A stretch of DNA of 64,000 nt from a bacterium. Lineage in GTDB: Bacteria > Patescibacteriota > Minisyncoccia > Phycocordibacterales > UBA9973. Position numbers and translations under genes: made by a program. Numbering within the stretch: position 1 is the stretch's first letter; each line of letters begins with the position of its first letter. The stretch covers positions 103,419 through 167,418 of the forward strand of contig JBAXTD010000001.1 of assembly GCA_037130335.1 (NCBI GenBank), read 5' to 3'. Shown here one piece after another: positions 3,187-56,037 of the stretch. Under the pieces are notes generated by a model. The model made no database searches and had not been told where the DNA came from. It saw nothing but the letters and a program-made list of their open reading frames with translations.

Positions 3187-4674
3187 TTCCACGTGCACTT
3201 TGATATCAGTACGTTCGTTTTTGAGTTTGAGAAACAGTGTTGCGAATGCACCGACAAAGATGATGACTGCGGCGATGAGGAATACATAATCGTATGCATC
3301 AATTTGTGCCTTGAGTTCTACGAGTCCGATATATTTTTGCATCACGATGGGTGAGTGACTATTTAGTTTACTGAAACTATTTATTGAAAATATATTATTT
3401 TTCACACGATCGTTTAGAATTGTTGCAAAGATTGCAATTCCAAATGCTCCGGCAACGTTGCGTACGAGTGCGAGGATTGATGATGCAACTCCGATTTCAC
3501 TTTGAGGAACTACAGATGCAATGATGTTTGTACGTTGTGCCATTCCAAATCCAAGTCCGAATGCCATGATTGAAAGAGGAATCATAATGTCGAGCGCTGT
3601 TGATTTGGGTTCGAGGTAAGAAAAGAAAAATATTCCAATTGATGCGACGATTGTACTCCAAAAAATAACGTACCGTGATTGAACTTTACCTGTGAGTGCT
3701 CCACCAATCGGTGCACCAATCATCATTGCGACCGCCATTGGCATAAACAAATATCCTGATTGTGTGGCATTGTATCCGAGAAATGTTTGAGCAAAAACTG
3801 GAATGAGAAAGATACCTCCCATAAGTCCCATAAATACAACAAAGTTATTTGCGAGCGCATTGAGAAATGCTGGAATTTTGAAAAATTTCAAATCCACGAT
3901 TGGTTCTGGAACTTTGTTTTCGATTTTTATAAATAGAATAAATGTTACAACGATAAAGAAATAACAAATTAAACTTGGTGATGAGAGCCAACCCCAATCT
4001 GTTCCTTGATCAAGTACGAGCACGACAGCAGAAAGCATTCCGCCTAATGTAAATGCGCCCCACCAATCAAAAAATTTTGTTTTTATTTCTGAACGAGATT
4101 CGTTGATAAATTGTATTGCCATGTAAATTCCAATAAGTCCGATTGGTAGATTAATGAGAAATACTGACCGCCAGCCGAAATTATCAATGAGTGGTCCACC
4201 GAGAAGTGGTCCAAATACTGTTGCTGCGGCAAATGATGAAGACCAGATACCAAGTGCTTGCGCGCGTTCTTTACCTTCGCGAAATGTGATTGCGAGAATT
4301 GCCATTGCGGTAGGGTAATCAGCCGATCCAGCTATTGCTTGAATTACACGAAAGACAATCATTGATTGGAGGTTCCATGCAAATCCGGCGAGGACTGATC
4401 CGACGATAAAAATCGAAAATCCAATGATGTAAACTTTTTTGCGTCCGATTGTGTCACCAAGTTTGCCCCAAATCGGCACAAAGACTGCATTGGCGAGAAT
4501 GTATGCAGTTGCAATCCATCCCGCAGCAGAAACACTGATACCAAAATCATTGATAATTTTGGGCAGTGCGAGATTGACGATGGTTTGATCGAGTCTACCT
4601 AGAAATGTTCCGACAATGACGGTGAGTAAAATCCACCAACGTAGATTATTTTTTTTAGATGGAATTGTTTCCAT
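3184..4674 (-). CDS. MFS drug efflux transporter, DHA2 (EmrB/QacA-like), 14 TMS.
   Basis: 496 aa polytopic protein. MFS motifs GRLDQTIVNLALP and WGKLGDTIGRKK. Confidence 0.8.
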   Translation of the reverse strand: METIPSKKNNLRWWILLTVIVGTFLGRLDQTIVNLALPKIINDFGISVSAAGWIATAYILANAVFVPIWGKLGDTIGRKKVYIIGFSIFIVGSVLAGFAWNLQSMIVFRVIQAIAGSADYPTAMAILAITFREGKERAQALGIWSSSFAAATVFGPLLGGPLIDNFGWRSVFLINLPIGLIGIYMAIQFINESRSEIKTKFFDWWGAFTLGGMLSAVVLVLDQGTDWGWLSSPSLICYFFIVVTFILFIKIENKVPEPIVDLKFFKIPAFLNALANNFVVFMGLMGGIFLIPVFAQTFLGYNATQSGYLFMPMAVAMMIGAPIGGALTGKVQSRYVIFWSTIVASIGIFFFSYLEPKSTALDIMIPLSIMAFGLGFGMAQRTNIIASVVPQSEIGVASSILALVRNVAGAFGIAIFATILNDRVKNNIFSINSFSKLNSHSPIVMQKYIGLVELKAQIDAYDYVFLIAAVIIFVGAFATLFLKLKNERTDIKVHVE

Positions 4675-4679
4675 AAAAA

Positions 4680-5321
4680 TTATTTTGTATATACCGTAAT
4701 TTTTGCAGACATTCCGTTTTTGAGTTCAGGATAGTCGGCGACGTTGAAACGAACTTTGATATCAAATTTTTTTGTTGGACGTTTGTCAGAAATTGAAAAC
4801 AAAACTCCTGTGTCGTCTGATGTTGAACTGATACTGTCGACAATTCCAACATATGTTTTACTGCCAAAGGTATCAACAGTGAATGTTGCTTTTTGCCCAA
4901 CGTGTATATTTTCTAATCCTTTGTTTTCGTCGATTGTTCCCATGACACGCATGTCTTCTGTGTGAATCATTGAAACAATCGGTTCGCCTGGTGTAAAGTA
5001 TTCTCCGATATTATTTTTGATCGTCAAAATAAGTCCACTTTGTTTGGAAGTTACGATATCTGTCCCTGTGAGCGCGACTGGTGTGTTTGCTTGGATTGAT
5101 TGACCTTCAGTTACATAGAGAGCGTTGAGTGTTCCTGGTGTGTTTGAAGAGAGATTAATGACAGGTGCACTTAGGTATGAATTTTCAATAAAAATTGTAT
5201 TTTTGTTTGATTGCCAAAAAATAAATCCAATAAGCATTGCTATTACGCCAACTATTCCAATGATACTTTGTACATTTGGTTTCTGTAAAATATTTTGTTT
5301 TTTTGTAGTTTGTTCTTCCAT
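4680..5321 (-). CDS. HlyD/EmrA-family membrane fusion protein (short form).
   Basis: N-terminal TM anchor, a lipoyl-like segment and a beta-barrel segment. Lies directly upstream of the MFS pump. Confidence 0.6.
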   Translation of the reverse strand: MEEQTTKKQNILQKPNVQSIIGIVGVIAMLIGFIFWQSNKNTIFIENSYLSAPVINLSSNTPGTLNALYVTEGQSIQANTPVALTGTDIVTSKQSGLILTIKNNIGEYFTPGEPIVSMIHTEDMRVMGTIDENKGLENIHVGQKATFTVDTFGSKTYVGIVDSISSTSDDTGVLFSISDKRPTKKFDIKVRFNVADYPELKNGMSAKITVYTK

Positions 5322-5342: not shown

Positions 5343-6446
5343 TTAATGAGATGAGATTAATTCAATAACTGGTGTATTTGGTGTTGCGATTTGTCCAGCA
5401 GTGATTGAAACATTTGCGATTGTTCCGTCGACAGGGGCAGTTATAACTGTGTTGTTGTAATTACCTTGTGCAATTTGAAGTGCACCTTTTGTGCTTTCAA
5501 CTTGGGCTTGTGCAATTTGTAAATCTTCGGATCGTGTACCAGCAACTTTTTGATTTAGGTTTGCTTGTGCAGTATCAACTGTGCCTTGTGCAGTAGCGAT
5601 TGTTTGAGCTTGTGTTTGTAATGCTGATTGATATGCATTGTATGACGCGAGATATGTAGATGACTGTGTGTTTGGAATCGTAATTGTCCATATTGAATTC
5701 GAGCCTAAATTAAAATTTTGTGGAAATTGTATATAGAGACCTCGTGTACCGAGTGGAATCGCGACTGTGCCGACCGTTGCTTTGCCTGTTTCTAATCCTG
5801 TGTATGTGAAATAGTATCCACTTTGTGTTGGATATACCGTGATTGTATATGTTCCTTCCTCGTTGTTTGCGTACGTTCCAGAAATCGTGGGCGATGATGG
5901 AATTACTACGTTTGTCATGGTAGGTAATGCAGTAAGTCCACTGTTGTGTAGATTTGAAAGTGCATTTGTGACCAATACTTTTTGGGATGATACTGTATTG
6001 TCGTAATTATTTTTTGCGTTTGTGAGTGCTACTTGTGCAATTTGAATGTCTGTTTCAGTTGACCCTGCAATTAATTTTGCATAATTGTTTTGTGCAGCAA
6101 GATATGCACCGTTTGCTTGACTGACTGCGCCGAGTGCGTTTTGACTATCGAGACTTGCGAGGGTTTGTCCTGCTTTGACTTTATCTCCAATTTTTACAGA
6201 TACACTTTGAATTCTGCCACCGACTGGAAACGCAAGTGTGAGATCTTGTCCGGAAGTTATAGTCGTTGCAGAAGTTGTATTATTTGAAATATGTGCAAAC
6301 ATCGCTGTGCGATGTTTGTTTTGTATTACCAAAAACAATGCGCCTATAAGTATAGCAATAGCGAGAGTTACGCCGATTGCTTTTTTGGGTTTAGAAAGTA
6401 TACGTGCACATGTATTTTTAAATTTTTGCATACCTCTTATTAACAC
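5343..6446 (-). CDS. HlyD-family periplasmic adaptor (TM, lipoyl half-domains and a long coiled coil).
   Basis: TM anchor, then VKIGDKVKAGQTLASLD (N lipoyl) and APVDGTIANVSITAGQIA (C lipoyl), separated by a Gln/Ala-rich coiled coil. Confidence 0.6.
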   Translation of the reverse strand: MLIRGMQKFKNTCARILSKPKKAIGVTLAIAILIGALFLVIQNKHRTAMFAHISNNTTSATTITSGQDLTLAFPVGGRIQSVSVKIGDKVKAGQTLASLDSQNALGAVSQANGAYLAAQNNYAKLIAGSTETDIQIAQVALTNAKNNYDNTVSSQKVLVTNALSNLHNSGLTALPTMTNVVIPSSPTISGTYANNEEGTYTITVYPTQSGYYFTYTGLETGKATVGTVAIPLGTRGLYIQFPQNFNLGSNSIWTITIPNTQSSTYLASYNAYQSALQTQAQTIATAQGTVDTAQANLNQKVAGTRSEDLQIAQAQVESTKGALQIAQGNYNNTVITAPVDGTIANVSITAGQIATPNTPVIELISSH

Positions 6447-6585: not shown

Positions 6586-7983
6586 ATGAAAAATATATTC
6601 TCAAAAATTATCTTCAGTGCTATGGTTCTCGTCACATCGTTTGTTTTTTCGGTGCATGTACACGCATACGTTACACCAACACTTTCTGTGTATGGTACAA
6701 GTGATGGAGATTCTGTGCAGGTCAATGCGTATGCCGATCCAAACGTAAGTATCACATTGTATTATCTCAAATCAGGTGCAGGTCAGCAGATTATTTCTCT
6801 CGGTAATACAAACTCAAGTGGTTTTCTTTCTACTACGGTAAGTAGTTCGCAATATGGTGTGATGTCAAATAGTCCAGTTCATATCACAGCAAACGGTATA
6901 AACGGAATATCATCATCGGTTGTAAATTGGCCGATTGTTACAACAAACATCACTAATGGAAATCTTTTGAGCCAGACAAGTGTGACAGTTTCTGTGGGGC
7001 AATCAGCAACAATAAATACAATCAACAATGTTGGTTCATTGTCTGTTTCAAGTAACTCAAATTCAAATGTCGCAAGTGTATATACAAATGGTAGTACAGT
7101 GACTGTCACTGGTAGTATGGTTGGTTCAACTACAATCAATATTTGTAATGCGTATTATAATCTCGTACCAAATTGTCAGAATTTATACGTTACTGTGCAA
7201 AATAGTAACAGTGGAAATCAAATAACATTTAGTCAAACAAATCCAACAATTTCTGTCGGACAAAATGTAAATATTTTTTTGTACGGAGGTTCTTCAAATT
7301 ATTACAGTATTTCTTCTAATTCAAATATAAATATTGTACAAGCAAGTATTTCTGGAAATAGTTTGAATGTGTACGGATTGTCATACGGTTCTTCTGTTAT
7401 AAATGTGTGTTCTTCAAATGGATATAGTTGTGGTCAAATTACAATAATGGTTTCTGGAAATAATCAGCCTGTATACAACACGAGCACAACTTTTTTGAAT
7501 GTAACACAATCAAAAATAAATATACTTACTGGTCAAAATACAACACTCTCTGTTTCTGGAGGTTCAGGTAGTGGATACAATATGGCATATATTTCTGGCT
7601 CCGGAATTATTTCTGGAGGCATAGCAGGAAATATCGTTACCGTCAGAGGAATTAGAAATGGATATGCCGTTATGGTTATTTGTGACTCGCTTAGTAATTG
7701 TGTTCCTGTTTCTGTTGTTGTCGGAAATACAATAAACCCATTAGGTAATCAATATCGATTTACTCAATATCTTTCGTTTGGTTCAACAGGAGCAGAAGTT
7801 GTTGCCTTACAACAAAGACTTACACAAGAGGGTGTATATAGTGGCCCAATCATTGGTGTTTTTGGTCCAATGACACAAGCGTCTGTGCAGCGATATCAAA
7901 GTGCGCATGGAATTCCAGTAACGGGTGTACTCGATAGTCTCACTCAAAACATGTTGAATGCTCAATTAAACATCGTATATTAA
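6586..7983 (+). CDS. Secreted repeat protein with a C-terminal peptidoglycan-binding domain (PG_binding_1).
   Basis: Signal peptide, Ser/Thr/Asn-rich repeated beta modules. C-terminus is GSTGAEVVALQQRLTQEGVY...SVQRYQSAHGIPVTGVLD. Confidence 0.65.
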   Translation: MKNIFSKIIFSAMVLVTSFVFSVHVHAYVTPTLSVYGTSDGDSVQVNAYADPNVSITLYYLKSGAGQQIISLGNTNSSGFLSTTVSSSQYGVMSNSPVHITANGINGISSSVVNWPIVTTNITNGNLLSQTSVTVSVGQSATINTINNVGSLSVSSNSNSNVASVYTNGSTVTVTGSMVGSTTINICNAYYNLVPNCQNLYVTVQNSNSGNQITFSQTNPTISVGQNVNIFLYGGSSNYYSISSNSNINIVQASISGNSLNVYGLSYGSSVINVCSSNGYSCGQITIMVSGNNQPVYNTSTTFLNVTQSKINILTGQNTTLSVSGGSGSGYNMAYISGSGIISGGIAGNIVTVRGIRNGYAVMVICDSLSNCVPVSVVVGNTINPLGNQYRFTQYLSFGSTGAEVVALQQRLTQEGVYSGPIIGVFGPMTQASVQRYQSAHGIPVTGVLDSLTQNMLNAQLNIVY

Positions 7984-31522: not shown

Positions 31523-31692
31523 GGTCTCCGGTAGCTCGTATGAGCGCCATTTTATATCAAAGAGCCGACACAGGGAGCGATACCGATATAAAATTTCCAA
31601 ACATTGAAAAATTAATAGAGTATATAGAGTACTACGTTTTATTTTGTTCCGTTTATATTCCAGTTTTATGAAATTTTAATTTTGTAAATTTT

Positions 31693-33314
<1,622 letters not shown>

Positions 33315-33570
33315 ATTGAATTCTGTTTCATTTTCCTATTTATAGGGCTTTGAAATTTAGTGCGTCGATTTTTTGTGCCTCAATTGAGCACAAAAAGGTT
33401 TAGTAGGCACCTACAACTATTTGGCAGTTTGGAAAGACAAACAGGTAAGAATATTAAACGGAACAAAATATAGCGCATCACTCACATATACAAAAACAAA
33501 AAATAACATCCAAAACATTGGGTGATTTTTTGTATTTCATATAGCAAAAATATGTAGTGCGTGTTACAGT

Positions 33571-36821: not shown

Positions 36822-37232
36822 TTTGTTCCGATTGGATGATCGCGCAAAATTTATTTTGTGAGGAAAGTCCGAACACGCAGCTCTGGGCGGATTTTTTGAA
36901 AAAAACTTTTTTTCAAAAAATCCGCCCAGAATTAAACGTAGTGGGTAATTCCCATCGTCCGCGAGGATAGCGGTGCGAGCAGTGACGCTTTGAGGCGAAA
37001 GCCAAAAAGCACCCCGAATTTTTGGGCTTGCCCAAAAATTCGGGGTGAATTCCTCTGGAAACCTAGGAAGTGAAACGGCAAAATCCGTACGCGCGTGCAA
37101 GATCGTGTTCGGGCGGCCCCGCTTTGCGGGGCCGCCCGAAAGAATCGCTCGAGGATAGAGGTAACTCTATTCCCAGATAAATGATCATCGTCTCGCAAGA
37201 GATACAAAATTCGGCTTATAGGTCGGAACACT
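36822..37232 (+). ncRNA. rnpB: RNase P RNA (bacterial type A).
   Basis: P4 5' strand gaggaaagtccgaacac. 3' region agataaatgatcatcgtctcgcaagagatacaaaattcggcttataggtcgg matches the E. coli AGAUGAAUGACUGUCCACGACAGAACCCGGCUUAUCGGUCAG. P1 pairing is tgttccgattgg / taggtcggaaca. gtgaaacggcaaaatccgtacg is a P10-12 analogue. Confidence 0.85.
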
Positions 37233-37240
37233 GAAATATG

Positions 37241-48346: not shown

Positions 48347-48456
48347 CTTTTTCTATGAAAACTAAGTGTTTTTTGTTGTTCTCAAAACTTGCTGTTATTT
48401 TAAGATATGCTAAACTGTTTCCAAAGAGTGCTATAAATAGCATCTTTTGGAAATAT

Positions 48457-49083
48457 ATGCAATATCAAGAATTACGTCAAAAACTCAAGGATTTCAGTGT
48501 TTTTTCGCTTTCAGACATTCGAAAGATCGAATCTGATTTTCATCGTCGTCGCTTGAATGAATGGCAAGAAAAGGGTTATATCAAGAAGCTCCGTCGCGGA
48601 TACTATATTTTCTCCGATCTCTTAATCTCCGAAGAGACGCTTTTTCTCATTGCCAATCGTCTTTATAATCCCTCGTACGTATCACTTGAGATGGCGATGT
48701 CGCGCTACGGATTGATTCCTGAGTCGGTCTATGGCGTGACTTCAGTTGGGAGTAAAAAGACCGCCGATTTTAAGACACCGATAGCAACTTTTCTATATCG
48801 CAGTATCAAGCCGTCGCTTCTTTTTGGCTACAAGCTGGAAGGAACAAAGAAGCAGAAATATAAGATCGCCGAGATTGAAAAGGCGGTGTTAGATTATCTC
48901 TATTTCAACAAACATTTATCCGCTGACGATGATTTTGAGGGGATACGTTTCAATGGCGAGGAGTTTCTAAAAAAGGCTGATATGTTGAAGTTCGAGCGAT
49001 ACCTCAGAGTATTCAAGAATAAAAATTTAACAGAGCGGGCTGGTGCGCTTATCAATTATATAAAGAATAACAACCATGCTTAG
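48457..49083 (+). CDS. AbiEi-family antitoxin / transcriptional regulator (type IV TA / Abi).
   Basis: N-terminal wHTH MQYQELRQKLKDFSVFSLSDIRKIE...GYIKKLRRGYYIFSD typical of the AbiEi N-domain. Start placed at the internal ATG 48457. Confidence 0.65.
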   Translation: MQYQELRQKLKDFSVFSLSDIRKIESDFHRRRLNEWQEKGYIKKLRRGYYIFSDLLISEETLFLIANRLYNPSYVSLEMAMSRYGLIPESVYGVTSVGSKKTADFKTPIATFLYRSIKPSLLFGYKLEGTKKQKYKIAEIEKAVLDYLYFNKHLSADDDFEGIRFNGEEFLKKADMLKFERYLRVFKNKNLTERAGALINYIKNNNHA

Positions 49084-49852
49084 CCTTCAAGAAATCGAAG
49101 TTCAGTATCCAGAAAACCTACGCCCCTTCAAGCGCAACATTTTGCGTGAGTATTTGCAATACAAGATTTTGGAGATCATCTTCAAATCGTCTCACGCGGC
49201 TAAGCTTTCCTTTCTCGGGGGTACGGCGCTCCGAATCGTCCACAACAACAGTCGCTTCTCGGAGGATCTTGATTTTGATAACTTCGGGCTGGAAGAGAGT
49301 GAGTTCAATGCTATCGCCGAAGAGGTAAAAGCAGGGCTCGATGCTCTTGGATTGAAGACGGAAATCAATACTGTGATGAAGGGAGCATATCGTTGCAACG
49401 TCAGACTTCCTGAAGTGCTTTTTGTGAATGAACTATCTCCCTTGCAAGAGGAAAAGATATTGATCCAGATCGACACGGTCCCACACCAGTATCCATATAC
49501 GCCTGACAAAAAAATCCTCAACAAGTTTGACGTGTTTTCGGAGATCTTTGTCACGCCCGTGTCGCTCTTGCTTTCACAAAAAATCTGGGCTGCCATCAAT
49601 CGCAAGCGAGCAAAGGGTCGTGATTTCTACGACATCGTCTTTCTCTTTTCTTTCACTAAACCTGAGTACCCGTATTTGATGCAGAAGATCGGTGCGGGCG
49701 ATGGGGAAGCGGTTCGACAAAAGCTACTCGACTCTATCCAAGACCTAGATTTTAAGATGCTTGCTGACGATGTTCGTCCGTTCCTATTCAATCCGGCTGA
49801 TGCACAGAAGGTTGAGCTTTTCAGGGAATTTGTAGTTCAAGTAGAGTTTTAG
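49076..49852 (+). CDS. AbiEii/AbiGii-family nucleotidyltransferase toxin (DUF1814).
   Basis: LREYLQYKILEIIFKS...LSFLGGTALRIVHNNSRFSEDLDFDNFG is the hallmark N-terminus. Overlaps AbiEi by 8 nt. Confidence 0.7.
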   Translation: MLSLQEIEVQYPENLRPFKRNILREYLQYKILEIIFKSSHAAKLSFLGGTALRIVHNNSRFSEDLDFDNFGLEESEFNAIAEEVKAGLDALGLKTEINTVMKGAYRCNVRLPEVLFVNELSPLQEEKILIQIDTVPHQYPYTPDKKILNKFDVFSEIFVTPVSLLLSQKIWAAINRKRAKGRDFYDIVFLFSFTKPEYPYLMQKIGAGDGEAVRQKLLDSIQDLDFKMLADDVRPFLFNPADAQKVELFREFVVQVEF

Positions 49853-51548: not shown

Positions 51549-51793
51549 ATTTGTTGATTTTAAGTTTGAAATTATTGGTTTATTTCAACCTCTCTGTCGG
51601 GAGGGGCTCAAATAAACCAATAAAGCTTAAAATCAAAGGTTATTAAGGATTTCTTAAATCTTGATTATATCATAGCATGTTTATATATAAAAGTCAAGGC
51701 TAATTCAGCCTCGGCTTGGCCAATTGTTGACTTTCTATAAATATATGTTATCCTATAAAAAAATCACTCTTTCAACTTTTAAATAGCACTTTT

Positions 51794-52111
51794 ATGAAGA
51801 AAATAATGGTTTTCGGTATTTTCGTTTGCTGCATCGCGGCCAGTTGTTCTAAGCGCCCCCAAGTTGTTAAAGTCCTGCCTGGCAAGCTCGTTCGAGTGAT
51901 CGGCAACGATGTATTCTGCCAGTTAAAGCTCGAAGTCGATACTTCACTGAAAGGAGGATTCGGCATTGTTGCCACCTCCTACAACGTATTCGATCACGAC
52001 GCCGAGAAAGGTGACAGTATGCGGGTGGCTCTGTATTCTGACGGGTCCGTCGAAGCTCATACGTACCGCATGCGTACGGACATCATGATCAGGGAGGATC
52101 GCGGGGACTGA
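51794..52111 (+). CDS. Small secreted protein or lipoprotein.
   Basis: Signal peptide MKKIMVFGIFVCCIAASCS. Confidence 0.4.
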   Translation: MKKIMVFGIFVCCIAASCSKRPQVVKVLPGKLVRVIGNDVFCQLKLEVDTSLKGGFGIVATSYNVFDHDAEKGDSMRVALYSDGSVEAHTYRMRTDIMIREDRGD

Positions 52112-52255
52112 TGCCAAAAGGAAAACGGGTGCGCCTATTCGTAAAAGTGCCCACAAATTAAGCCCTTGGAAAAACCAAGGCACTGTCGCAAGGTAATTGC
52201 TTTGCCTGATGAGTCCATGAGGACGAAACAGCTGTTCTTTACATAAAAAATCTAT

Positions 52256-53053
52256 ATGCTCAATTTCAAGGAGTTCCAAGCCAAAGCTCGGGAACTATTC
52301 GGCAAACTGAACTGCGATCCGGCCGGTGACGACCCCATCACATTTCTGCACTCCCTTCCCTGGGAGATACCGAACGGTCCTGCTTTTTCCGAAGAGGAAG
52401 TGGCACGAATGAATATCGACTTCGACGTGCGCGGCTGTTTCGGCCGGGCACTCAAAGCCGCAGTGTTGGTTGAGAAGTATTTTCCGAACGAAACTTTTTA
52501 CAACGGCGAGGTGCTCGAAGACTTGCTTCGCTCCATGCTAATGAAAAAAGTGACACCGGAAAAATGGCATGACGATACCTACGTCGCTGAGATTCTCCAG
52601 TATGAGAATCCGCACGTGGCGATCGTCTGGAACGATTCGCAGTTTGATCCAATCTTCAGTCTTCTGACTGACAGGCCGGAAACGCTCAAGCATCCGTCAA
52701 TATTGAAACATAGCCAATGGGAAGGATTGTACTGCTACTATCTCGTAAGCAGTGGCATGCTCTTGTTCAGACAAAAGCAAAATCCAAACCTATACTTGCA
52801 AGCTCTCAAGCAAGCCGAGGCGATCTGCCCGCACATGCTTCTCGTCAAAGAAAATCTGGTGAGCGCACTCTGCGCCCTGAACAGATTCGACGAGTCGGTC
52901 GCGATTGCGAAATCGCTGGTCGGAAAGCGCAAGGACGCGAAAATGCTATGGTTCCTATTGCAGATGACCGGAGACCCGGCGTACAAAGATCGGCTCGTAC
53001 GCGAGTATGACATCCAAATGCTTCACTTCTTAAACAAAGCGTTCATACCATGA
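52256..53053 (+). CDS. Hypothetical protein (265 aa, high GC).
   Basis: Helical, TPR-like C-terminus. Translationally coupled (ATGA) to the next ORF. Confidence 0.45.
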   Translation: MLNFKEFQAKARELFGKLNCDPAGDDPITFLHSLPWEIPNGPAFSEEEVARMNIDFDVRGCFGRALKAAVLVEKYFPNETFYNGEVLEDLLRSMLMKKVTPEKWHDDTYVAEILQYENPHVAIVWNDSQFDPIFSLLTDRPETLKHPSILKHSQWEGLYCYYLVSSGMLLFRQKQNPNLYLQALKQAEAICPHMLLVKENLVSALCALNRFDESVAIAKSLVGKRKDAKMLWFLLQMTGDPAYKDRLVREYDIQMLHFLNKAFIP

Positions 53054-53235
53054 CACCATCGGACTTGTCACCCGCTATGCGTAAGGCCTACGAGGCCCTT
53101 CCGGAAAACGAAAGAGAAGCGTTCCTTGAAGAGTATGCACACTGGTACGGCGAAACCGTGCGAGGAAACATATCTCGCATAATGGCACGCAATTTTTCGC
53201 ACAATGTTGGGAAACATGTGACGGAAGCGCAGTAA
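53050..53235 (+). CDS. Hypothetical small protein (61 aa).
   Basis: Its start overlaps the previous stop. Confidence 0.35.
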   Translation: MTPSDLSPAMRKAYEALPENEREAFLEEYAHWYGETVRGNISRIMARNFSHNVGKHVTEAQ

Positions 53236-53349
53236 AGAAATTGAAATTCCCAAAGGATAACGGACGAGCCTATATGTAAAATCGTCCACATTTTAGAGCC
53301 CATGAGGAAACTCGTGGTCTCTGAATGAAATTGTACTTTCACAAAATTT

Positions 53350-53395
53350 TTATTGATGACCAGAGAAGGTCACCACCTTTTGTGGTCATCAATAA
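53350..53395. promoter_or_regulatory. Perfect 12-bp inverted repeat (ttattgatgacc N22 ggtcatcaataa), operator-like.
   Basis: Read directly from the sequence. Sits at or over the 5' end of the 53407 gene. Confidence 0.4.
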
Positions 53396-53406
53396 AATCT
53401 CAAATA

Positions 53407-53979
53407 ATGGAAATTATATATAAGAGTAATTCGACTATGGACTTTGCCACTCGCGTAAAGGAAACCATAACATATCTGGACACGGCGATTTTCGAAAAGC
53501 CCGCACGAGTGTCAATAAATACTGACGTGCGTTACGCGAATTTCGGCACTGGTGGATTCATGTCAAAAAGATTGCTATTCAGATTGCTTGGATTATCTGA
53601 TGACTATGTCATCTTTGAAAGAAGCAAGAAAATGGAAATTATAATGAAGATGGACTTCATGGCCACCTGCCTCGCCGCGCACGAAGTTCGGCATCGGTTC
53701 CAACATTACAACAAGAAGACGCTCATCACTTTTGATTTTCTACAGAAGAATAAGATTCTTACTGAACCGGCACTCGCGCACATTCAGAAAGGAAACTATG
53801 ATCTGTACGGAAAAGACAAAGAGATGTATGGGCGCGAGTTTGATGCCTCGGCGATCGAGACGATAATCTCCGGTTGCTCCAAGGCTAAGAATTTCACGAT
53901 GAACGACGTGATTGATTTGATAAAGTGCAATGAAAGCACAATTAGTCAGATTGTCTCTGGAATTGCTAAGCGAAGGTAA
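53407..53979 (+). CDS. Hypothetical protein.
   Basis: ORF from 53353. The internal ATG at 53407 was preferred because the palindrome covers 53350-53395. Confidence 0.4.
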   Translation: MEIIYKSNSTMDFATRVKETITYLDTAIFEKPARVSINTDVRYANFGTGGFMSKRLLFRLLGLSDDYVIFERSKKMEIIMKMDFMATCLAAHEVRHRFQHYNKKTLITFDFLQKNKILTEPALAHIQKGNYDLYGKDKEMYGREFDASAIETIISGCSKAKNFTMNDVIDLIKCNESTISQIVSGIAKRR

Positions 53980-54029
53980 GTTGTTCTCAGTCAAGAAAAT
54001 CCCAAAGCCAACCATTTCGGTTGGCTTTT

Positions 54030-54272
54030 TTACTTTTCTATTTTGGTAAAGCGAAACGCGATAAATGAGAGGTAGAAAAGAACGAGCATTTCGATCCATG
54101 TCATCCAGAGCGGATAGGTCATGCCGCCGAGGCTGATTTCAAATCCGGTCATGATACGGAGCAGGTGAATAAATCCGCCGAAGAAAAAGAGGACTGTGGA
54201 AATATAGAAAAATATTTTCTTGTTCATGGATACAAGAATAGCATATCTAAAAAACGCCATATGTGTGTACAC
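54030..54272 (-). CDS. Small membrane protein (80 aa, 2 TM).
   Basis: Hydrophobic helices. Confidence 0.3.
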   Translation of the reverse strand: MYTHMAFFRYAILVSMNKKIFFYISTVLFFFGGFIHLLRIMTGFEISLGGMTYPLWMTWIEMLVLFYLSFIAFRFTKIEK

Positions 54273-54286
54273 ATTACCACGGTCTA

Positions 54287-55215
54287 CGTATTGTAACCAA
54301 TAGCTTCACACCACCTGCATTGGAGTTAAGTAATTAATCCCTCCATGAACTCGTTTGTTGTTGTAATATTTTAAATACTTTTTAAGTGCACAATTAATTT
54401 CCGAAACATCATTTGAAATTTTGTCTAAACATTCTTCTTGTACTGTTCGATTGAATCTTTCAACATGTGCATTGTCATTCGGTTTTCCGATTCGGGTATA
54501 CCGATGATTTTTCTGTATTTGAGTTACAAACCATTTCCCAAACTCCGGTCCGTGATCCGATTGTAGCATTTTGAATTTGAATGAAGAATGTCGTTGCGCT
54601 TCATTCACAAACCGTATTGTGGTTTGTGAATTCATTTTTGCATATGCTTTTGCATATACCCAACGTGAATATGTATCAATGATGACAAAAACATACAGAC
54701 GTTTCTTCTCCGATATCATCCGATGGATTGTATCAATCTCTAGTAAATCGCCTGATTTCAAGGCGTATGGGCGGTCTACATGCGGATGATATCGTTTCCA
54801 AGGACTTCGTTTCTTCGTTAAATATTTTCGATCGAGTGTTCTTTTTACAGACGAAAGAGAAACTGTTACTCCATCATTTTCTAACTCTTTGTGAACTGCT
54901 TCTGCATATCGATTGTGTTCCAATCTTTTCTTTACGATTTTTCTGACGATATTTTCTGGTAGGGCATTCGGATGTGATTTTGGTTTTGAACTTTTTGTTA
55001 GTATTGGGTGGTCTCCAATGATTCTTGATTTTCGTACCCATTCGGTAATCGCTGTATGATGGAAACCCAGATATCTTCCGACCTTTCTTGCACTCCAACC
55101 TTTATGGACGAGACGCGCTGCGTCTCGTCTGATTCGTGGCATGTTTTTGTTTGATGTGTATGGCATGCTTGATATGGTAATCCAGCGGGTGGTGCCAAGC
55201 TATTGAACCTATACG
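54287..55215 (-). mobile_element. IS481-like insertion sequence (929 bp) with ~38-bp imperfect terminal inverted repeats and a 6-bp target-site duplication GGTCTA.
   Basis: Left end cgtattgtaaccaatagcttcacaccacctgcattgg versus the reverse-complemented right end cgtataggttcaatagcttggcaccacccgctggatt. GGTCTA at 54281-54286 and 55216-55221. Confidence 0.7.
54306..55166 (-). CDS. DDE transposase (HTH plus rve integrase core), IS481/IS3-superfamily type.
   Basis: N-terminal HTH. DDE triad at IDTIH, QSDHGPEF and ERFNRTVQEE. C-terminus is YYNNKRVHGGINYLTPMQV. Confidence 0.8.
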   Translation of the reverse strand: MPYTSNKNMPRIRRDAARLVHKGWSARKVGRYLGFHHTAITEWVRKSRIIGDHPILTKSSKPKSHPNALPENIVRKIVKKRLEHNRYAEAVHKELENDGVTVSLSSVKRTLDRKYLTKKRSPWKRYHPHVDRPYALKSGDLLEIDTIHRMISEKKRLYVFVIIDTYSRWVYAKAYAKMNSQTTIRFVNEAQRHSSFKFKMLQSDHGPEFGKWFVTQIQKNHRYTRIGKPNDNAHVERFNRTVQEECLDKISNDVSEINCALKKYLKYYNNKRVHGGINYLTPMQVV

Positions 55216-55290
55216 GGTCTATTGACATTCTATACATTATATGATAATATACCAGCGATAAATGTTCACTCACAATTAAATATATAACTC

Positions 55291-56037
55291 ATGAAATCAA
55301 TTCTTTTTTGCACCGCTATTTTGATTGTTACTCTTTCTGCTTGTCAGAATGCAAAAGACCCATATGCAGCGACTGTCGATTTTTCAAAACCCGCTGCATC
55401 GAATGCCGATTTTATATTTTCCACCTGCCAGGGTAAGACCCTTCTTGTGGCAGACGCCGCAAGCGCACAAAAAGTTAGTGATAACCTGAAAGCGAAAACC
55501 GGCGGAATATTGTCGGACATGGGAATTGGGAATGCATTTGCGCTTACTTTGCAGGGAAAAACATATTTATGTACTGCAAGGCACGGCGCGGTTGGATTGG
55601 AAAAATATACCAGAACCATCGGGGCGGATATTGCGTTGATAGATTATAACGCCATACCGAACCATGATCTTGGTACAGGATTTCAACTGACCAGCTCGTA
55701 CGAAATGGATACGACCATCCGCACAGGAGACTCGATATTCATTAAGGGATACCTCTTTACCAAAGAGGGAGAGCTGCAAACCGTAACCATCGGCGGCAAA
55801 GGAAAAATAATAGACAAGACTGAGTACGGGAAAAATGTAAGTTTTGGTACTAACGCGCAATACATGCAGCAGCATGAGCTCGTTATCAAGCTTGGTGAGA
55901 ATGTTGAATTGGCAGGTCTTTCTGGCTCTCCGGCATTCAATGCACAAGGGAAGGTGATCGGTGTTTACTCTGGGAGAACCATAGACCAGGACCATGGCAC
56001 TGATACCTACTACATCCGAGTCTCGCTATTTAACTGA
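55291..56037 (+). CDS. Lipoprotein, trypsin-like (S1) serine peptidase fold.
   Basis: Lipobox LSAC. His region CTARHGAV and Ser motif GLSGSPAF. Confidence 0.45.
   Translation: MKSILFCTAILIVTLSACQNAKDPYAATVDFSKPAASNADFIFSTCQGKTLLVADAASAQKVSDNLKAKTGGILSDMGIGNAFALTLQGKTYLCTARHGAVGLEKYTRTIGADIALIDYNAIPNHDLGTGFQLTSSYEMDTTIRTGDSIFIKGYLFTKEGELQTVTIGGKGKIIDKTEYGKNVSFGTNAQYMQQHELVIKLGENVELAGLSGSPAFNAQGKVIGVYSGRTIDQDHGTDTYYIRVSLFN

Follow-up and report, generated by a model that had tools for sequence, protein, structure and literature searches.

A 64-kb stretch of contig JBAXTD010000001.1 from a member of the Patescibacteria (hereafter the window, whose numbering is used throughout) contains, at 52256–53979, three consecutive genes encoding proteins of 265, 61 and 190 aa (open reading frames, ORFs, 1 to 3), with a 105-aa ORF upstream. 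Analysis of the spacers between these genes revealed a candidate type III hammerhead ribozyme, a repeated two-hairpin RNA motif of ~83 nt that we label R1, and a long leader hairpin. On balance, the best explanation of the sequence is a single operon whose spacers contain cis-acting RNA elements rather than protein-binding DNA, and the most likely function of these elements, we infer, would be the processing and stabilisation of a polycistronic mRNA, not operator control. The initial annotation, which described a three-gene block with an operator-like palindrome, missed the hammerhead and the repeated RNA motif in both spacers. The genes and RNA elements are listed below.

51794–52111, plus strand: 105-aa ORF, the predicted first gene of the operon, with a lipoprotein-like N-terminus and a guanine-plus-cytosine (GC) content of 0.509
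52115–52173 (to 52180 with a short hairpin), plus strand: partial R1 copy A, matched at 40.7 and 41.5 bits (E ~1e-6)
52183–52231, plus strand: type III hammerhead (Rfam RF00008) with an intact core, upstream of ORF1
52256–53053, plus strand: ORF1, 265 aa, with an N-terminal alpha/beta domain and a C-terminal domain resembling tetratricopeptide repeats (TPR)
53050–53235, plus strand: ORF2, 61 aa, the constant partner of ORF1, which it overlaps at ATGA
53250–53332, plus strand: full-length R1 copy B, with covariance-model matches of 94.8 and 92.6 bits
53348–53397, plus strand: the reported palindrome, which forms a leader hairpin of 23 bp around a 4-nt loop and contains a conserved G-G mismatch
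53407–53979, plus strand: ORF3, 190 aa, from a small orphan family in which HEVRHRFQ and EFDA are invariant or near-invariant

The spacer before ORF1 reads CUGAUGAG-UCC-AUGA-GGA-CGAAAC, and RF00008 matched positions 52180–52234 with a score of 36.6 bits (E = 1.4e-5). Examined by the acceptance criteria of PMC3088659, the element has a complete catalytic core (CUGAUGA, 52206–52212, and GAAA, 52225–52228), three stems, of which I and II end in loops and III is open (stem I, 52188–52205, 7 bp; stem II, 52213–52224, 4 bp; stem III, CUGU/ACAG), and standard pairs beside the core (G52188-C52205, G52213-C52224 and A52228-U52186). The nucleotide H17 is C rather than G, and on the basis of this arrangement the RNA should be cut between C52187 and G52188. 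An Rfam scan found further sub-threshold hammerheads in three loci of the candidate phyla radiation (CPR), here labelled, like the other loci compared with the window, by L-numbers: L015 (44.5 bits, with A at the variable position 7 of the core), L009 (41.1 bits) and L004 (25.7 bits), in which H17 is C, A and U, respectively. The E-values of these local scans, 1.4e-5 to 1.8e-6, are significant for the stretches searched. All four CPR hammerheads have a common layout, consisting of a GC-rich hairpin, CUGUH, a covarying stem I of 5–7 bp, the core, a stem II of 3–4 bp, CGAAAC-AG, a U/A-rich leader (UGUUCUUUAA in three of the four loci) and a start codon, which lies 23 nt past the hammerhead in the window and farther away in L009 and L015. 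Stem II covaries among the four elements, as does stem I.

A strict pattern for this subtype gave 23 matches in 21 phage contigs from IMG/VR (L149–L169, with two matches each in L153 and L169). The phage contigs have the same layout, with a GC-rich hairpin, CUGUH, stem I, the core, a stem II of UCC-AAAA-GGA, CGAAACAG, an A/U-rich leader and an AUG, and their copies always stand straight after the hairpin and ahead of a start codon; the window hammerhead can therefore be placed in a type III subfamily carried by phages. H17 is C, A or U in the phage matches, the search pattern itself having excluded G at this position. Perreault et al. (2011, PMC3088659) reported that bacterial hammerheads cluster around genes in prophages and showed that such clustered elements, from bacteria and prophages, cut polycistronic RNAs in vitro. 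The window element shares with these type III hammerheads (RF00008) the core, the three stems, the NUH cleavage site and an intergenic place in a polycistronic mobile unit; it differs in its Patescibacteria host, in the preceding hairpin, which belongs to R1 copy A, and in its score and stem III, considered below. No report of hammerheads in CPR or Saccharibacteria was found in the searchable literature, and a notable finding here is the occurrence of a ribozyme of a known kind in a Patescibacteria genome, a new host lineage.

Three features weigh against this assignment and would fit an inactive relic or a chance resemblance instead. The score of 36.6 bits lies under the RF00008 gathering cut-off of 48.5 bits, stem III is limited to 4 bp, and in three of the four CPR copies a competing pairing of the core CUG with CAG is slightly favoured in the unconstrained fold. 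Such a relic is nevertheless improbable, given that the core positions are all intact with no mispair beside them, that the stems covary, that the matches are significant, and that G stands at position 17 in none of the four CPR copies and in none of the 23 phage matches (for the latter, subject to the pattern that barred it). The hammerhead fold also comes within 1.2–1.8 kcal/mol of the minimum free energy. We consider the element highly likely to be a genuine hammerhead.

The repeated motif R1 follows the stop codons of the 105-aa ORF and ORF2. It consists of a GC-rich 6-bp helix (P1) and a long AU-rich helix (P2) of 16 pairs with conserved G-U pairs, one bulge and one 1x1 loop, as defined with RNAalifold and explicit pair counts; an independent MAFFT and RNAalifold analysis recovered identical helices. 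In copy B, P1 is formed by 53262–53267 and 53282–53287 around the loop GCCUAUAUGUAAAA, and P2 is a long irregular hairpin at 53289–53327. Copy A, located 3 nt past the stop codon, keeps the 5' tail (AAAGGAAAAC) and P1 (52127–52132 with 52147–52152, loop GCCUAUUCGUAAAA), and its long P2 is replaced by a short hairpin at 52164–52180 and the hammerhead. The two spacers share ~50 nt, and their P1 stems are compensated (GGGUGC/GUGCCC in copy A and GGACGA/UCGUCC in copy B). Across 12 R1 sequences, 96.6% of cells were paired, compared with 34–45% when the partners were slid. The corresponding value for 24 covariance-model matches was 96.4% (36–51% in slid controls), with double changes at 19 of 22 pairs. 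By our tally of the 24-sequence table, ~63 of 505 cells, about one in eight, are G-U pairs, which favours a structure formed by the gene-strand RNA.

In loci with ORF1 homologues (43–59% protein identity), the ~100 nt past ORF2 are far better conserved than the proteins. A search with a degenerate pattern revealed R1 in assemblies of Saccharibacteria, Nomurabacteria, Minisyncoccia and Paceibacterota, beside unrelated genes; two pattern matches, in L013 (Butyricicoccaceae) and L017, were regarded as accidental and set aside. The covariance models R1 and R2 detected 24–32 copies in ~175 kb of CPR loci, several per locus and on one strand (five R1 copies in consecutive spacers of L006, and three or four each in L012, L014 and L015), and gave zero matches in viral control DNA (743 kb and 537 kb). 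Most R1 copies open 0–7 nt past a stop codon, and the downstream AUG on the same strand is found 21–30 nt beyond P2, after a U/A-rich leader; where R1 stands at the end of an operon, a separate canonical terminator follows. No Rfam 15 family matched the plus strand over 53250–53332 at E < 5, and none fell on the R1 copies of 14 further loci (E < 0.5). R1 is very likely a genuine structured RNA; it is specific to CPR bacteria, in which it marks gene boundaries, and is absent from Rfam release 15.

Several other identities for R1 were rejected. Rfam 15 gave no match of R1 to a known small ribozyme, a riboswitch or the drum motif; according to PMC5737381, drum RNAs do not accompany hammerheads. 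R1 is not a permuted or degenerate hammerhead, its CUGAUAG-like segment being one strand of a covarying stem (AGAG/CUCU in the window) and not a conserved core, with no stem II and no GAAA. A start-stop mini-ORF in the P1 loop (AUG-UAA) is present in the window copy only and is not conserved, and no promoter was found by the scan inside R1 or before the palindrome. A P2-like DNA pattern gave more than 120 matches in viral contigs, none of which fitted the covariance model; these were regarded as chance and used as a negative control.

Other features were noted beside the R1 arrays. A gene for a TrmB-like regulator adjoins them on the opposite strand in L004 (2313–3059), L006 (991–1782), L012 (168–950) and L014 (3031–3813). 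L006 and L012 each contain a homologous gene for a 98–99-aa membrane protein followed by a homologous R1 copy. The minus strand of L015 encodes two small paralogues with a CSICQSR motif (4250–4591 and 5625–5909), with R1 copies and the hammerhead between them.

R1 and the hammerhead fill the same slot in other loci, namely after a hairpin and before a U/A-rich leader with an AUG 21–30 nt on, and this sharing of a slot in the same operons is the main support for a processing model. The model takes the observed elements, with their positions, conservation and covariation, and would add to them cleavage, stabilisation and an effect on translation. In the proposed pathway, the hammerhead would cut the transcript at C52187/G52188, leaving an upstream mRNA that ends in hairpins and an ORF1-ORF2 mRNA that begins with a 5'-OH. 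A host RNase specific for double strands would cut P2 of R1 and the ORF3 leader hairpin; P2 would thus serve as a processing site for an RNase III-like endonuclease and P1 as a 3' stabiliser of the upstream cistron, while the leader hairpin would probably act, as RNA, either as a site for a double-stranded RNase or as a 5' stabiliser. Each upstream fragment would then end in a protective hairpin, either P1 or the hairpin preceding the hammerhead, and a short A/U-rich leader of its own would serve the translation of each downstream cistron. A role of R1 in processing or stability is proposed tentatively, from the arrangement of the elements.

Some properties of R1 count against the processing model. 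The comparison covered only ~15 independent loci, and P2 is no more than a hairpin with mismatches. In addition, the P1 loop (GCCUA...UAAAA) and the 5' tail are conserved, hinting at a function more specific than that of a stabiliser. Such conserved unpaired nucleotides, which are numerous in the strongest subgroup, would suit a new class of RNA with catalytic or other elaborate biochemical activity, in the most novel case a self-cleaving ribozyme that is interchangeable with the hammerhead and with which CPR bacteria would cut polycistronic mRNAs at nearly all gene boundaries of certain accessory-gene arrays. A ribozyme is also favoured by the position of R1, which shares with hammerheads the slot in these CPR operons as well as the hairpin ahead of it and the leader behind it, and association with hammerhead or twister contexts was the route by which pistol, hatchet and twister-sister were discovered (PMC5737381). 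However, the invariance of the loop and tail in the best group is partly imposed by the search pattern, and many of the weaker copies retain the hairpins alone, with plain tetraloops in P1, so that no conserved catalytic core is evident. The motif is built of two simple hairpins, in which neither a pseudoknot nor a multi-stem junction is apparent, and it also occurs at operon ends, where cleavage would have no obvious use; a new ribozyme class is thus quite unlikely.

We also considered R1 as a transcription signal, either a leaky terminator or attenuator composed of P1 and the U-rich tract, or an antitermination RNA resembling the put RNA of phage HK022, in which two adjacent hairpins are separated by one nucleotide. 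The hairpins of R1 are likewise one nucleotide apart, a U-rich run begins 2–3 nt after the GC-rich P1 in many copies, and a canonical terminator takes the position of P2 in L009. Nevertheless, the U-runs are short and discontinuous, do not abut the stem, and are base-paired in P2 with covariation. Neither R1 nor the palindrome has a GC-rich stem directly followed by a U-run, as an intrinsic terminator does; within the operon, the terminator scan called only 54004–54028, and not R1. The separate terminator that follows R1 at operon ends is a further objection, and a put-like element would be needed once per operon rather than in every spacer. A role in transcription is accordingly doubtful, to a degree that leaves it an improbable explanation.

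A DNA recombination site bounding mobile gene cassettes, like the attC sites of integrons, is highly improbable. Both R1 and attC are structured and divergent in sequence, follow each gene of an array and travel with the gene. The ORF1-ORF2 pair moves with its 3' R1 into unrelated neighbourhoods, two R1 copies flank the pair in the window, the copies within arrays are divergent in sequence and alike in structure, and recombinases are present nearby. However, the R''/R' consensus of attC (RYYYAAC...GTTRRRY) is missing from the R1 alignments, R1 has two hairpins rather than one, and no integron-type integrase was seen beside the arrays. The ~12% of paired cells that are G-U on the gene strand would become A-C mismatches on the other strand, the positions are tightly bound to stop and start codons, and the same slot is filled by hammerheads, which act only as RNA and with which R1 is interchangeable.

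The processing model has parallels in known systems. In phage T7 early mRNA, RNase III processing hairpins are located between genes, and repetitive extragenic palindromic (REP) elements are 3' stabiliser hairpins. Like these, R1 is intercistronic and gene-punctuating, with an imperfect hairpin of ~20 bp that recurs along one transcript, and the proposed outcome would be similar, giving separate mRNAs with protective hairpin ends. R1 differs from both in its two hairpins, its anchoring to stop codons, its conserved G-U pairs (UCAU/GUGG) and, in one subgroup, a 14-nt conserved loop and 5' tail; its copies, in contrast to REP elements, have diverged strongly in sequence. RiboJ, a ribozyme-plus-hairpin insulator used in synthetic biology, employs a hammerhead to free the downstream leader and translation from the upstream context. 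The window element is natural, and its hairpin is upstream of the ribozyme rather than downstream.

The third element is the palindrome before ORF3, in which the initial annotation saw a regulator binding site. The perfect 12-bp inverted repeat is indeed present (TTATTGATGACC at 53350–53361 and, inverted, at 53384–53395), and it extends further than was first noted, with 23-nt arms (53348–53370 and 53375–53397) that are 91% complementary around a 4-nt loop. As reported, no T-run follows it (the sequence reads AAAAUCUC). The stem ends 9 nt before the ORF3 AUG, with 53398–53406 between them. As RNA, the palindrome has a folding z-score of −6.6 to −8.8 relative to shuffled sequences. A search of the 64-kb window found the 12-mer only at the two arms, arguing against a miniature inverted-repeat transposable element, and blastn gave no match to the palindrome in phage or plasmid collections. 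ORF3 starts at ATG 53407, as indicated by the conserved N-terminus MEI(I/V)YK in an alignment of homologues, and the hairpin is therefore outside the coding sequence; the alternative start TTG 53353 was rejected on the same grounds.

Long hairpins are found upstream of ORF3 family members in all three loci compared (the window, L022 and L023). In L022 and L023 they lie 11–30 nt before the AUG, with sigma-70-like promoter hexamers upstream, as read by eye, which places the L022 hairpin between the promoter-like site and the start codon. The window and L022 hairpins share an inner segment, CA-G-AG/UU-G-UG, including the G-G mismatch, and their lower stems are fully compensated (AUUGAUGA/UCAUCAAU in the window and GAUUGGUU/AACCAAUU in L022). 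The window contains one more hairpin of this kind.

51572–51623, minus strand: second long hairpin (TTATTGG...CCAATAA), in the leader of a response-regulator-like gene starting at ATG 51548

This hairpin has a folding z-score of −6.5, and a minus-strand promoter-like site (51697–51669) is present upstream. The pattern TTATTG-N26-50-CAATAA had four matches against 0.52 expected, two of which are the hairpins at 51572–51623 and 53350–53395.

The palindrome is equally palindromic as DNA, and an operator role is compatible with the sequence, which tells against a reading as RNA. It could be the operator of a dimeric regulator, for example the adjacent response-regulator-like protein, with TTATTG...CAATAA defining a small regulon. 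The perfect 12-bp repeat, the recurrence of the outer hexamers in the leader of the response-regulator-like gene and the enrichment of the hexamer pair all favour such a site. Conserved half-sites at a fixed spacing were, however, not found across the window, L022, L023 and 51572–51623. The distance over the outer hexamers is 46 nt in the ORF3 leader, 52 nt at 51572–51623 and longer in L023, and stem sequence as well as arm spacing changes upstream of the ORF3 homologues while compensatory changes keep the pairing. As the spacing differs among the four hairpins and the pairing is kept, the element behaves as a transcribed leader hairpin rather than a fixed-spacing operator. Moreover, the interior is complementary throughout (a 23-bp stem around a 4-nt loop), a feature that an operator would not require. 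The elements of L022 and at 51572 are downstream of a promoter-like site, in the transcribed leader, and no DNA-binding domain was detected in the response-regulator-like protein. An operator is therefore unlikely, and the palindrome probably acts as RNA.

The extent of the operon was examined with a consensus scan for promoters and terminators, in which a promoter call denotes a match to the consensus only.

51727–51754, plus strand: promoter-like site TTGACT-16-TATCCT with TG, a consensus match ahead of the 105-aa ORF
54004–54034 (called by the scan at 54004–54028), plus strand: terminator-like hairpin and T-run, readable as a terminator in either direction, which closes the predicted operon

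The site before the 105-aa ORF is the sole good promoter-like site, and the terminator after ORF3 the sole good one; the scan found no promoter-like site before ORF1 or before ORF3. These signals frame four genes, and the simplest reading is therefore that 51794–54034 forms one putative transcription unit comprising the 105-aa ORF, ORF1, ORF2 and ORF3. A block of three genes is thus not supported, and ORF3 differs from the others in GC content and phyletic distribution.

The GC content of the window is ~38%, and it includes a 16S rRNA gene and an RNase P RNA. In 1-kb bins the peak is 0.506, at 52001–53000, compared with 0.491 for the bin of the 16S rRNA. The high value of about 50% first attributed to all three genes applies to ORF1 and ORF2, together with the upstream 105-aa ORF (0.503–0.509), and not to ORF3 (0.422); the GC-rich unit is therefore 51794–53235 rather than 52256–53979. 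Homologues of ORF1 and ORF2 elsewhere match the GC content of their own hosts, and the anomaly in the window is consistent with acquisition from elsewhere. The nearest relatives of the window genes are all in metagenome-assembled genomes of Patescibacteria (CPR). The surrounding region was earlier called an island, a fair term because genes for a serine recombinase, a tyrosine integrase and an AbiEii toxin and an insertion sequence (IS) are found around the block. The AbiEii-type toxin gene (49076–49852) is preceded by an overlapping 242-aa ORF (region 48355–49852), and the two probably form a type IV toxin-antitoxin pair. The IS element (54295–55208) has imperfect inverted repeats of 21 nt (54298–54318 and 55185–55205) and a single transposase with helix-turn-helix and rve domains on the minus strand (54306–55166).

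The window has two copies of a leader sequence, AUUGUWCWYUCACAA: one follows R1 copy B (53330–53345), and the other (55258–55290) stands directly 5' of a trypsin-like gene (55291–56037). The L003 counterpart is at 5074–5105. In L003, the trypsin-like gene comes straight after the ORF1-ORF2-R1 unit. Because of this repeated leader and the gene order in L003, the window appears, compared with L003, to carry an inserted segment made up of the hairpin, ORF3, the terminator, a minus-strand ORF of 80 aa and the IS. The sequence UGUUCWUUYA was rejected as a general ribosome-binding signal of the genome, as it is not enriched in the window.

Searches of Pfam, NCBIfam, PHROGs and PADLOC gave no family for any of the four operon proteins, and none of them matched common phage structural genes. 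With no PHROGs, PADLOC, NCBIfam or blastn matches, a phage, plasmid or defence-system origin of the proteins was rejected. The 4-nt ATGA overlap of ORF1 and ORF2 is kept in seven of eight homologous loci, and translational coupling, suggested earlier, fits this conserved overlap and the constant pairing of the two genes. ORF2 homologues have 61–65 aa and the motifs DLSPxMxxAYxAL and RNxSHNxGKHV. The ORF1-ORF2 pair, with R1 at its 3' end, occurs in unrelated neighbourhoods. The earlier statement that the proteins lack recognisable domains is borne out by sequence searches, but not by the structure model of ORF1 or the HExxH...E motif of ORF3.

The ORF1 model is confident (predicted local distance difference test score of 94.7) and resembles menin and TPR proteins, with tandem helix-turn-helix repeats. 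The menin match spans 213 residues at 11% sequence identity. Menin combines TPR with a transglutaminase-like N-terminal part; ORF1, which is without a Pfam or NCBIfam family, models as a menin-like, proposed transglutaminase-like domain with a TPR fold. C61, H120 and D131 are invariant in 20 sequences, and a Cys-His-Asp catalytic triad, as in transglutaminase-like or papain-like cysteine peptidase folds, is proposed from this conservation only. For ORF3, a full-library profile search gave ~35 cluster representatives, none of them annotated, and no Pfam or PDB relatives were found; the structure model is weak and gave no fold match, so a fold assignment was dropped. The HExxH...E motif is invariant, and the HEVRHRFQ and EFDA sequences suggest a putative metal-dependent hydrolase, for which a zincin-type metallopeptidase (HExxH and a third ligand) was considered.

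Taken as a whole, what the initial annotation observed is confirmed, and its interpretation is partly supported. The coupling, the island and the GC anomaly of ORF1 and ORF2 stand, and the two outcomes that it named as refuting, phage structural proteins and a repeat family of transposable elements, were not found; the three-gene block, the operator and the absence of domains beyond sequence searches are not supported.

Other RNAs were recorded in the course of the analysis. The 16S rRNA gene (31691–33316) exceeds the Rfam model by ~90 nt, owing to insertions, and its 3' end (33280–33316) reads GGAUUACUUCAAAUUGA; no CCUCC anti-Shine-Dalgarno sequence is present within its final 60 nt, and Shine-Dalgarno-like sequences are likewise missing ahead of the genes studied here. 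The RNase P RNA (bacterial class A, 36824–37234) scored 109.5 bits against an Rfam threshold of 100 and has large insertions or deletions. A LOOT RNA (Rfam RF03000, 82.7 bits) is located at 6802–6921 of L001, a Paceibacterota assembly, ~1.8 kb downstream of the ORF1 homologue.

The genomes of Patescibacteria are tiny and the organisms hard to grow, so that very little is known of their gene regulation. The notable finding beyond the hammerhead is a gene-punctuating structured RNA motif without a match in Rfam release 15, which provides a practical marker for accessory-gene arrays and a candidate target for self-cleavage screens. A ribozyme and a covariation-backed motif share the same intergenic slot, and the motif recurs in successive spacers across several CPR lineages. 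These observations point to RNA-level operon punctuation as a regular feature of CPR organisms.

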